A stretch of 64,000 bases of DNA, from positions 360,220,001-360,284,000 of the forward strand of contig OZ024743.1 in assembly GCA_964016885.1 (NCBI GenBank), in the 5' to 3' direction. The DNA comes from Eledone cirrhosa (Eukaryota). Each line of letters starts with the position of its first letter. The stretch's first letter is position 1. Below, piece after piece: positions 34,031-62,310 of this stretch. The notes beneath the pieces are model-generated. The model worked only from the letters and a program-made list of their open reading frames with translations, did no database searches and was not told where the DNA came from. Made by a program: the position numbers and the translations under genes.

Positions 34031-35150
34031 GTAGCATGCATATATATATATATATATATATATATATATATGCATGCTACTGTACGTCTGTATACATATA
34101 TGTATGTACGTATACATACATACTTACATTTAAGTAAGTGCCGTACTAAGAGTGAGAAATGAAATTTCGTTTTCATTTTATTTCAACTTATCGTTTTCGG
34201 TATGCCTGACCGATTTAACTCACTCGATATGCAAATTAGGCTGCTCAGCCGTTAATTTTCATAAGGAAAGTATATACTTTCGAACGTTCAACTATCTGGC
34301 AGAAGGGTATACGGTGCTGATGATAGCTAACAAGCTTGAAACTAGTACATCGTTCCTCTGTCAGTGTTGAACAAAAAGGTGACGTGGTTGCCTTAACACC
34401 GTATGGCATAAATTCAGACTGTTCAGTTTGTTTACAAGCGAACAAAGCGGCGTTATAATAAGCATCCGCTAAACTGATACCTGCATATATGTATATGTAC
34501 CTGTATGTATATATATATATATATATATATATATATATATATATATATATATATGAATGCTACTGTACGTCTATATACATATATGTATGTACGTATACAT
34601 ACATACTTACATTTAAGTAAGTGCCGTACTAAGAGTGAGAAATGAAATTTCGTTTTCATTTTATTTCAACTTATCGTTTTCGGTATGACTAACCGATTTA
34701 ACTCACTCGATATGCAAATTAGGCTGCTCAGCCGTTAATTTTCATAAGGAAAGTATATACTTTCGAACGTTCAATTATCTGGCAGAAGGGTATAGGGTGC
34801 TGATGATAGCTAACAAGCTTGAAACTAGTACATCGTTCCTGTGTCAGTGTTGCACAAAAAGGTGACGTGGTTGCCTTAACACCGTATGGCATAAATTCAG
34901 GCTGTTCAGTTTGTTTACAAACGAACAAAGCGGCGTTATAATAAGCGTCCACTCAACTGATACGTGCATATATGTATGTGTACCTGTATGTATATATATA
35001 TATATATATATATATATATATATATATATGTATGCATGCTACTGTACGTCTGTATACATATATGTATGTACGTATACATACATACTTACATTTAAGTAAG
35101 TGCCGTACTAAGAGTGAGAAATGAAATTTCGTTTCATTTTATTTCAACTT
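34031..35150 (+). mobile_element. Retrozyme-like tandem, locus 1 (~2.2 units, ~483 bp)
   Basis: Same unit as 56051-59363, slightly diverged; HHRs at 34311-34353 and 34794-34836; inverted cap GTAGCATGC at 34031. Confidence 0.85.
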
Positions 35151-37602
35151 ATATATATTATATATATATATATATATATATATATATATATATATATATA
35201 TATATATATATATATATATATATATATATATATATATATATATATATATATATGTATATATATATATACACTATGCAGGATGTATAAATAAAAGAGGAAT
35301 GAAAAATATTGTTGTATGTCGGTCAATAGATAGAATGATGGATTGATAAACAAATAGATATATAGTTATTTCCCATTCTTCATGTTTATATATTTATAGT
35401 TTACTGAGAAACCTGATATATTTTGGTTTCACCTTCTTCATTGGGTTTCAGTAGTTTACATCTCGAAATGGGATTGATATTGTTATTCCTGATTAGTGCA
35501 ACAGTTACTGATGCAACAGATTAAAGGATTTATCAAACAAAAAATTATTCCTTCTCACGAATAAAAATGGAAATGTGGATTTTTATTGTTCATGCTCTTT
35601 TCATGTGACTCAGATCCACTTGAAATGTCTTCAAATCAGAATCAAACTACATTTATGAATTTGCTGGTGCCCTGGTGTATTTCACTTTCCAACATGAGCC
35701 TACTTTTAGAAAGGAAATTATGTGAGAATATAAGAACAACAATTTTAATGTTATCTTGCTTGTCAACATATAAATGCATGAGTAATATATTGAACCATCT
35801 TATATACATCATTGGTATAGATGTATGCGAAATTGTTAAAAATAATGACTCTGTAAGCATCCTATTGATTTTTCACAACACATATGACACCTTTCATCTT
35901 TATGGATATAATATCAGGCCACCATATGCTTTTAACAGATTTACTTGCTTAAATCCTTGGTAACGGCGACAATAGTTTTTTGATAGTTATTTGACTTTTC
36001 TAGTCGGCGCAGCATCAGAGTGTCGGCTTATATGTTATGAAGTGGTTAAAAATGTTCTTAGCGTAGAAGACAAATCACATTTGAACGTATTGCAATTATA
36101 TTTGGTAAAATTAGGATGTAATTAGACTTTGGCACCAATGATAAACTGTACATTTCGCCTACTCTATGACTATAATTACTTACATAAGGGAAAGTCTTAT
36201 GAAAATTACTCATAACGTTGTGCATCTCTTCTCTCTCTCCACACACACAACCACGCGCACACACATACAACCACGCGCACACACACAGACACACACCCAT
36301 GCATACGCACACACACATGCACGCACACACACACTATATATATATGTGTGTGTGTCTGCTGTAGGAGTGTCTGTATGCTTTAATTTCTTTTTATTGTTGT
36401 GTCTATAAAATTAACATCTATTTCTTTCATCATATCTCTCTCTCTCTATGTATATATATATATATATCACTCTGTCACTCTATTTGTCCATTTTCTTTCA
36501 TTCTAATATCTACGTCTAATTACATCTCTAGCTATTCTCTCTATCTCTATCCCTCTCCCTCCCTCTCTCTCTCTCCTTCTGTCTCTCTCTCCTTCTTGTG
36601 ACCGAATGGTTAACAAACATACGTTGCTATCATTACGTAGTGGGTTAGGGCTTACTACGGGGTTTATTGGACAAGTGACATTTGCCATAAATGTGCGTTG
36701 ATCTGTCTTGCGACTGAAATATGTAGAGAATTGCGATAAGGATGCACGTGTATGTGGGATCCTGGAATGCTCAGCTGCTTACAACTTAATTTTAACTGGA
36801 AGACTCTTCGTCAAATACGACGGAATACAATATATATATATATATATATGTGGGAATGAGGTGAGAGAGAGAAACAGGGTAGTTCTTCAATGAATTGTGA
36901 TGTTTATATTGAGTCTCCAATGATATTTTATCATGCCTAATACAAATCTTGTATGAGCCATCAAAAGCTTTGCTCATAACTCGTCTTGAGGGTCAGTTAG
37001 ATATAATGCTTAGCCATAAGAAAAGAAGCGATCGAATTAGTATGAGTGGTGTTGGTGTCATTGATGGAGCCTCTACATTGTTTATGGAGATGTTAGAAAT
37101 AGCAGCCTCATCCTGATGAGTTAAATAAACTACTTTAAAAAAAAAAACGAGCGGCACATTGCGAAATATAGTCGAATCACAAAATACATGCAGTAATGTT
37201 TTATTTATTCTCAAAATTACCCAACCGTCAATTATAAACAAATAACCCTGAATAAATTTCATGTTGTTGTAAATATCTATTATCTCCAATAAAACGATGT
37301 GCTCAAGTAGGAAACCAGACGGTTTAATATTATATAATAACGTTATGACGTAAATACATATATAGCACATCGACTCTCGTAGAAGTCTCTCGCCAATTGT
37401 TGAGTGTTGTGTTGTTCAACGCATACACTCACACATACATACACACAGACACAGACACACATATATATATGTATGTATCTCTCTCTCTCTCTCTCTCTCT
37501 CTATATATATATATATATATATATATATATATATATATATATATATAGCGGCGATGAATTAGTTTTGCGAGGTTTTTTATATGAAATCGTGTGTCGAAAC
37601 AG

Positions 37603-61617: not shown

Positions 61618-61639
61618 ATATATATATATATATATATAT

Positions 61640-62310
61640 CGATGGAAAAATGAAATTTCATTTCTCACTCTTAGTACGGCTGATACTTATGTGTAAGTAA
61701 GTATACGTACATATGTATACAGACGTACAGTAGTATTATATACATACATACATGCACGCATATATATGTACGTATGGGTTTACGGAACATTTATTATAAT
61801 GTTCGGTAACCATCGTTGCCCTTTTGTTCAACACTGACAAAGGAACGATGAACTAGTTTCTAGCTTATTAGCTGTCATCAGCACTGTATACCTTCCTGTC
61901 AGTCTATTGAACGTTTGAAAGTATATACTTTCCTTATGCATATTAACGGCTGAGCAGCCTAATTTGCATATCGAGTGAGTTAGTCGGCCAGGCGTAACGA
62001 AAACAATAAATGGAAAAATGAAATTTCATTTCTCGTTCCTAGTACGGCTGATACTTAAATGTAAGTATGTATACGTACATACATATATCTTTACAGACGT
62101 ACAGTATTATGTATCTATATAGATAGATGCACACATATATATATATATATGTACGTATTGGTTTACCGAACATTTATTATAATGTTCGGTTTATTTGTAA
62201 ACAAACAGCCCAAATTAAGCCGTAGTGTTCGGCAACCGTCGTTGCCCTTTTGATACAAAGTATCAGCCGTACTAAGAGTACAAAGTATCAGCTGTACTAA
62301 GAATGAGAAA
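61640..62310 (-). mobile_element. Retrozyme-like tandem, locus 3 (diverged, ~370-bp period)
   Basis: Reverse-complement homologue of the 466-bp unit; HHR at 61845-61887 (acagtg CTGATGA c agct-aata-agct a GAAA ctag TT catcgt); inverted cap at 62255-62310. Confidence 0.8.

Follow-up and report, generated by a model that had tools for sequence, protein, structure and literature searches.

The window analysed here is the whole 64-kb stretch of contig OZ024743.1 of Eledone cirrhosa (64,000 nucleotides). Tandem Repeats Finder and sequence comparison revealed one tandem family carrying a hammerhead motif at three loci within it, in agreement with the earlier note. Array 1 (34072-35152, plus strand) contains 2.3 units of 483 nt (Tandem Repeats Finder: 34040-35152, period 483, 2.3 copies), and the long arm of array 2 (56051-59367, plus strand) consists of 7.1 identical 466-nt units (56051-59364, period 466, 7.1 copies, 100% matches). 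Array 3 (61642-62252, minus strand) is built of a 374-nt unit and was assigned to a second subfamily with about 82% identity to arrays 1 and 2. A 36-nt stretch of the family's motif occurs in 10,391 exact copies throughout the 3.0-Gb assembly. The earlier note had named shared unique flanks as the mark of segmental duplication; the 1-kb flanks of the three arrays have no sequence in common, which rules out that origin.

With unit positions counted from window position 34072, every complete unit holds a type I hammerhead motif at positions 246-276 (34317-34347 and 34800-34830 on the plus strand in array 1, seven motifs in array 2, and 61851-61881 in array 3), predicted to be cut after GUA at unit 276. 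The core CUGANGA...GAAA, stems I-III and NUH are present in all full units, with a stem I of 5-6 bp, a stem II of 4 bp and a palindromic stem III of 1 bp; the closing pair of stem II is a U-U or C-A mismatch, and variation is seen at N7, at H17 and at one pair that is G-U, A-U or U-G. The hammerhead pattern matched 17 times in the window against 0.17 expected, ten of the matches lying within the three arrays. Rfam scans returned no hammerhead family at the gathering threshold, only chance matches driven by microsatellites. Free folding of four hammerhead regions gave structures no more stable than shuffles (z-scores about 0 to -1.6), and the core was no more conserved than the remaining columns (5/11 versus 65/149) in a crude test on overlapping loci. 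More hammerhead-like motifs were observed in other repeat families, at 18256-18293 (minus), 20531-20561 (plus), 47785-47818 (minus) and 48092-48125 (plus). The units show a GC content of 0.34-0.37, an internal (TA)n ((AT)16 at 34040-34071 in array 1), a longest Met-ORF of 44-112 aa and no LTR layout, and are non-coding; having no ORF for a reverse transcriptase (RT) and GIY-YIG endonuclease, they represent a non-autonomous element. By its sequence features, namely a tandem type I hammerhead motif, low GC and lack of coding capacity, the family qualifies as a non-LTR retrozyme.

According to the earlier note, each array begins with a short inverted piece of its own unit next to (TA)n. Inverted pieces were indeed found at all three arrays (9 nt, 58 nt and about 25 nt duplicated), but those of arrays 1 and 3 are remnants without a canonical end. 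In array 2, a short arm of 58 nt (55996-56053, minus strand) runs from unit 120, designated site A, back to unit 63. The target tract (TA)n (55949-55996) lies outside its A end, and a 3-nt TAC microhomology (56051-56053) marks the central junction with the long arm, which ends at a second site, B (unit 58-61), against (TA)n. The forward arm of array 1 ends at site A (unit ~120), where it adjoins (TA)n at 35153-35268. Its inverted remnant (34031-34039, minus strand, unit 1-9), a 9-nt match with a chance of about 2e-6 at a fixed place, sits across the unit's own (AT)16, which is on its inner side. Outside, four extra bases join this remnant to an internal 176-nt fragment (33851-34026, minus strand) of another high-copy repeat, which has 1,206 candidates in the genome and is Penelope-like element (PLE)-like by flanking coding motifs read by eye. 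Array 3 ends at its own site A, two bases from (TA)n at 61618-61639, at the opposite end from its inverted piece (62258-62310, plus strand), a duplicated part of the unit's tail region cut short by poly(A) and an unrelated 5'-truncated repeat (62314-62785). Arrays 1 and 3 together retain just two canonical 3' ends. Since target (TA)n lies outside the inverted piece of array 2 only, its place being taken by the PLE-like fragment in array 1 and by poly(A) in array 3, the claimed adjacency to (TA)n fails as a general feature and array 2 is the sole complete example in the window.

Tabulating ends and inverted arms over a genomic sample, as the earlier note had proposed, uncovered a regularity absent from it: there are two fixed 3' ends, and they are paired one of each. 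The sample comprised three locus sets, i.e. all clusters among the first 100 motif matches on contig C1, 60 loci anchored on the A end only, and best-hit loci. After deduplication, and with the window left out, these gave 186 subfamily 1 groups (L197, L209, L221 and L238 hand-adjusted, L209 checked). Of these, 114 were two-armed and head-to-head, 63 had a single arm, 4 were complex and 5 ran off the edge of the retrieved sequence. The arms end at A (unit ~120) and B (~55-61), about 59 nt apart and each against (TA)n; A is nearly always unit 120, and B is spread over three TA/AT steps (unit 55, 58 and 61). Both ends were canonical in 90 two-armed groups, and all 90 were A+B, with no A+A and no B+B (22 in the positional sample, 39 in the A-anchored out-of-sample set and 29 among the best-hit loci). 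For the A-anchored set, 39/39 corresponds to a p of about 2e-12 under independent ends at even odds. The other 24 two-armed groups have A with an interrupted or odd end (18), B with such an end (4) or neither (2). Subfamily 2, with ends at 107 and 57 and a tail of 50 nt, contributed 17 A+B and no like pairs among 30 groups, so that 107/107 intact two-armed insertions of both subfamilies pair one A with one B.

A (TA)n tract lies within 14 nt of 155/156 A ends and 104/108 B ends (259/264 canonical ends in all), and the starts fall at 2-3 nt TA/AT matches. Because the ends sit in (TA)n, target-site duplications are unreadable. Among the first 100 motif matches, neighbours on opposite strands and no more than 1.5 kb apart were head-to-head in 17 cases and tail-to-tail in none, and exact junction patterns occur genome-wide at least 2,508 times for A and at least 3,256 times for B, the B pattern probably catching subfamily 2 as well. 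Contigs from four runs of unrecorded kind carried no information on starts or ends, apart from a single record in X6, where a contig passes from site A directly into (TA)n. A tail hairpin closed exactly at A and B was considered and rejected; it appeared in one fold window only and fails for array 2. The earlier note had described the inverted pieces as short, which does not hold in general: arm lengths go from about 10 bases up to several kb. Such a piece is better explained as the second arm left by a reaction that works from both DNA ends, using one start site for each.

Both PLEs of the window carry an inverted arm, as the earlier note had pointed out. PLE1 consists of a 2.1-kb inverted arm (3604-5735, minus strand), with a short (B-type) end at 3604 and a hammerhead motif at 3630-3663, and a forward arm (5736-11399, plus strand) with a truncated RT/GIY-YIG ORF (5736-6949) containing a Hydra-type linker, a microsatellite-like 3' region, a hammerhead motif at 11272-11305 and a 67-nt tail (11333-11399). 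The 3' region holds a TA/TG microsatellite-like stretch of 1.6-2.7 kb in both arms (4086-5738 and 7941-10653, ~91% identity). PLE2 (37548-40893, minus strand) has a broken ORF and a long end with a 57-nt tail (37548-37604), and its short inverted arm (40894-40917, plus strand) has a short (B-type) end against (TA)n. The same long/short end pattern is found in at least six non-coding families. These are unrelated families whose head-to-head insertions in (TA)n combine a short end with a long one and have tails of about 33-110 nt (window 7510-7940, 16810-17014, 18330-18585, 17598-17918, 41001-41208, 45895-47633 and 61330-61617), and such pairing seems to be a general trait of the PLE-type elements here. 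The ORF at window 5736 and that at L137 belong to two different Hydra-type PLEs, and both are truncated just before an MGASDS motif, by coincidence or at a pausing site.

A young PLE family, PLE-N, retains unbroken ORFs of about 810 aa (L343:3040-5502 and L356; 821 and 831 aa stop-to-stop), its copies being 99-100% identical among 1,901 candidates. It targets (TA)n, carries its own hammerhead motif and has a tail measuring about 90 nt; its ends in 20 loci comprised 8 clear A+B pairs, 1 variant and no like pairs. An asparagine-rich linker separates its RT from the endonuclease. The motifs DKT, CxCX5C linker, CxxC and CxH, together with the hammerhead and the (TA)n target, match the published description of Hydra-clade PLEs, with RWT where RWK is described (PMC8557442), and on these motifs, rather than a tree, PLE-N can be assigned to the Hydra clade. 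Pfam and PDB searches with the PLE proteins gave no hits, and their Atlas neighbours include GIY-YIG/RVT_1 in a minority of members. Fusions of the retrozyme with PLE-N at two loci keep A+B across families. At L137, the partner of a retrozyme A arm begins at the PLE-N short end and then switches to retrozyme; at L134, one arm has the PLE-N long end and the other terminates at retrozyme B. Cross-family joins as a whole were complementary in 4 cases, long+long in 2 (L168 and L085) and ambiguous in 1; the two long+long joins indicate that later deletion can mimic fusion. That PLE-N drives the retrozyme is plausible, at a likelihood falling slightly short of even; the lack of detectable sequence common to the two counts against it.

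Clean central junctions show an overlap of 1-5 nt in 27/43 cases. The earlier note had ascribed the inverted pieces to twin priming or template switching, and both make predictions for these arms. Under L1-style twin priming with a single linear RNA as template, the nicked second strand would anneal internally at B, and the A-primed cDNA is expected to stop where the B primer sat. Array 2 fits this exactly, its A arm stopping at unit 63, the A arm stops at 52-72 in 5/58 other insertions, and variants are common to both arms. However, the other 53/58 A arms run past B or stop elsewhere, 5/58 is not above chance (p=0.19), and many full units are often present in both arms, which makes twin priming very unlikely. 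Alternatively, a single priming event could be followed by snap-back or self-priming, in which the RT copies its own cDNA or antisense RNA and the tail is what remains once the endonuclease has trimmed one end; copying of antisense RNA has been proposed (PMC3846280). Containment of one arm in the other in 43/58 insertions and perfect palindromes at some junctions (L127 and L146) agree with such a course, as does an exceptional palindrome in the window (44847-45379), which ends long on both sides, duplicates about 150 bp of flank on each and looks like fold-back copying. Against it, neither arm contains the other in 15/58, containment runs in both directions (33 versus 10), and arms of different families exist (L128, L149, L134 and L137). 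We therefore regard snap-back as improbable; the rarity of A arms stopping near B and the failure of containment disfavour twin priming and snap-back, respectively, as general rules.

The 5' breakpoints are evenly scattered, and only 3/127 lie near the ribozyme cut, which excludes ribozyme cleavage as the source of the 5' ends and argues against cut linear monomers as the usual template. Within an insertion, the two arms differ by 1.1%, compared with 2.6% to the median other locus, and the former value was lower in 40/42 insertions. This points to a shared template or source as the usual situation, with the arm-to-arm difference being about that between neighbouring units within an arm and on average 15% of other loci being equally close. 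A pooled in-register test of the arms gave 182 versus 132 votes and differences of 1.08% versus 0.98%. At two loci (L172 and J247), two unit types alternate along 12-14 units and both arms start in the same phase, judged by substitutions and spacer length. This alternation fits a dimeric circle and hints at circular templates; no source locus for the L172 dimer was found among 29 scored of 1,571 candidates. The arms of J171 are non-periodic and offset by one unit, a pattern that fits a linear multimer. In two arrays identical by substitution (L300 and L306), the spacer lengths are periodic (43-43-51-59 twice in L300), hinting at multi-unit templates. Comparing identity within and between arrays, 156/231 pairs were identical, the arrays having been selected by similarity. 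We give an even chance to the template being uncleaved multimer or circular RNA instead of a cleaved monomer, with circles serving in some cases at least.

Another possibility, considered in bioRxiv 10.64898/2026.07.22.740005, is that the arrays are satellites into which scattered PLE-terminal monomers expanded in place through unequal exchange, with the ribozyme motif and circles irrelevant to copy number. In line with it are old arrays that are heterogeneous and shuffled in their higher-order pattern (J175, at least 35 units; L256; J176). Such shuffled arrays of 14 to at least 35 units were seen at L252, L175, L253 (C4:212.91-212.93 Mb), L255-L176 and L256, which suggests a satellite-like fate for some copies. 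Local growth would, however, account for the few old long arrays but not for the typical insertion, and in young arrays (L297, L307 and J247) both arms are long, identical to each other and delimited by A and B, indicating that length was set at insertion. As an account of the family it is very improbable.

The sequences directly show arms lying head-to-head with fixed ends, paired A+B, at a TA target; they also show the mostly 1-5 nt junction microhomology, the scattered 5' breakpoints and the greater similarity of the arms to each other than to other loci. The reading we favour, and consider likely, is that these are independent insertions of a non-coding hammerhead element with arms at A and B, made through double-end priming by a PLE RT/GIY-YIG enzyme. 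This is in keeping with the earlier note, which had proposed independent insertion by PLE machinery, and with the unshared flanks, the (TA)n target and the same two-end tail signature in PLEs. It is highly likely that a PLE is the enzyme that cuts and copies. In this mechanism, the PLE enzyme, which probably acts as a dimer whose start sites are asymmetric, would cleave a TA repeat on both strands, and reverse transcription would be primed from both cut ends, one at each start site. A single RNA or source array would usually serve as template for both arms. The first cDNA would be displaced by the second enzyme, and the two cDNA 3' ends would then anneal through microhomology, each priming the second strand of the other. 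Counting against double-end priming are the 63/186 one-armed groups and the 24 two-armed groups with a non-canonical or interrupted end. More tentatively, a PLE dimer may sit on one circular retrozyme RNA, with its two RT sites firing from different fixed sites in obligate asymmetry and the rolling-circle cDNAs joining head-to-head. Both RTs would then circle a monomer or dimer RNA while displacing each other's cDNA, and if so, the thousands of insertions would document target-primed reverse transcription that starts from both DNA ends and proceeds by rolling circle.

Animal non-LTR retrozymes are low-GC, non-coding tandem units with a hammerhead motif that occur alongside PLEs (Cervera and de la Pena 2020, PMC7229834; bioRxiv 10.64898/2026.07.22.740005). 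The present family resembles them in its low GC (34-37%), its non-coding tandem units with a type I hammerhead motif and its thousands of dispersed copies, but differs in its unit length of 374-483 nt and its internal (TA)n. Circular templates and PLE mobilisation have been proposed (PMC7229834 and PMC4209133), and Li et al. (bioRxiv 10.64898/2026.07.22.740005) support a PLE origin with co-distribution and pLTR homology. PLE mobilisation of the published retrozymes was deduced from co-occurrence and pLTR homology, the insertion ends not being described in the portions of these reports available to us. The family studied here offers junction evidence instead, and comparison of its unit with the ends of three families, PLE-N, PLE1 and PLE2, detected no pLTR homology. 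As far as its sequence tells, it appears to work like a non-LTR retrozyme mobilised by PLE machinery.

PLE insertions are known to have an adjacent inverted 5'-truncated copy and a 30-40 bp tail, often at one end (PMC8557442, PMC3846280). The retrozyme shares the head-to-head arms, the tail at one end, the (TA)n target and the microhomology junctions, but it is non-coding, its tail is 59 nt long (50 in subfamily 2, 33-110 in other local families), and the pairing described there as frequent is strict in our sample (107/107). The Anolis PLE Poseidon cuts and extends both strands in vitro, with two internal start sites defining the tail (Frangieh et al. 2024, PMC11167929); a dimer was predicted, hammerhead cleavage was unnecessary and the target was AT-rich. 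The two start sites defining the tail are common to both systems. In the accessible parts of that study, Poseidon showed no difference in start site between strands and no primer homology, whereas single events here use one site each and start at 2-3 nt TA/AT matches. The component parts of our explanation are of known kinds, and the additions are the strict pairing and the in-register dimer arrays, neither of which was found in the literature searched (few subscription papers, supplements aside). Both the enzyme that moves retrozymes and the way inverted and tailed PLE insertions are built are described as unresolved in the available text of PMC7229834, PMC8557442 and PMC11167929. The family thus gives direct junction evidence for a retrozyme-type repeat inserted the PLE way, the 'optional tail' can be recast as a rule open to testing, in which each DNA end uses one start site, and PLE-N with its unbroken ORFs, together with a 480-nt RNA, is ready material for an in vitro test.

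Other repeats were also observed. The unrelated 5'-truncated repeat next to the inverted piece of array 3 has a fixed 3' end and has repeatedly inserted into the internal (TA)n of the retrozyme and into (ACAT)n (L006, L019, L151 and L224; window 62314-62785 and 12327-12684). Broken LINE-type RT fragments were recognized by eye from translations at 20986-22683, 33438-33836, 48604-49972 and 63000-63329.
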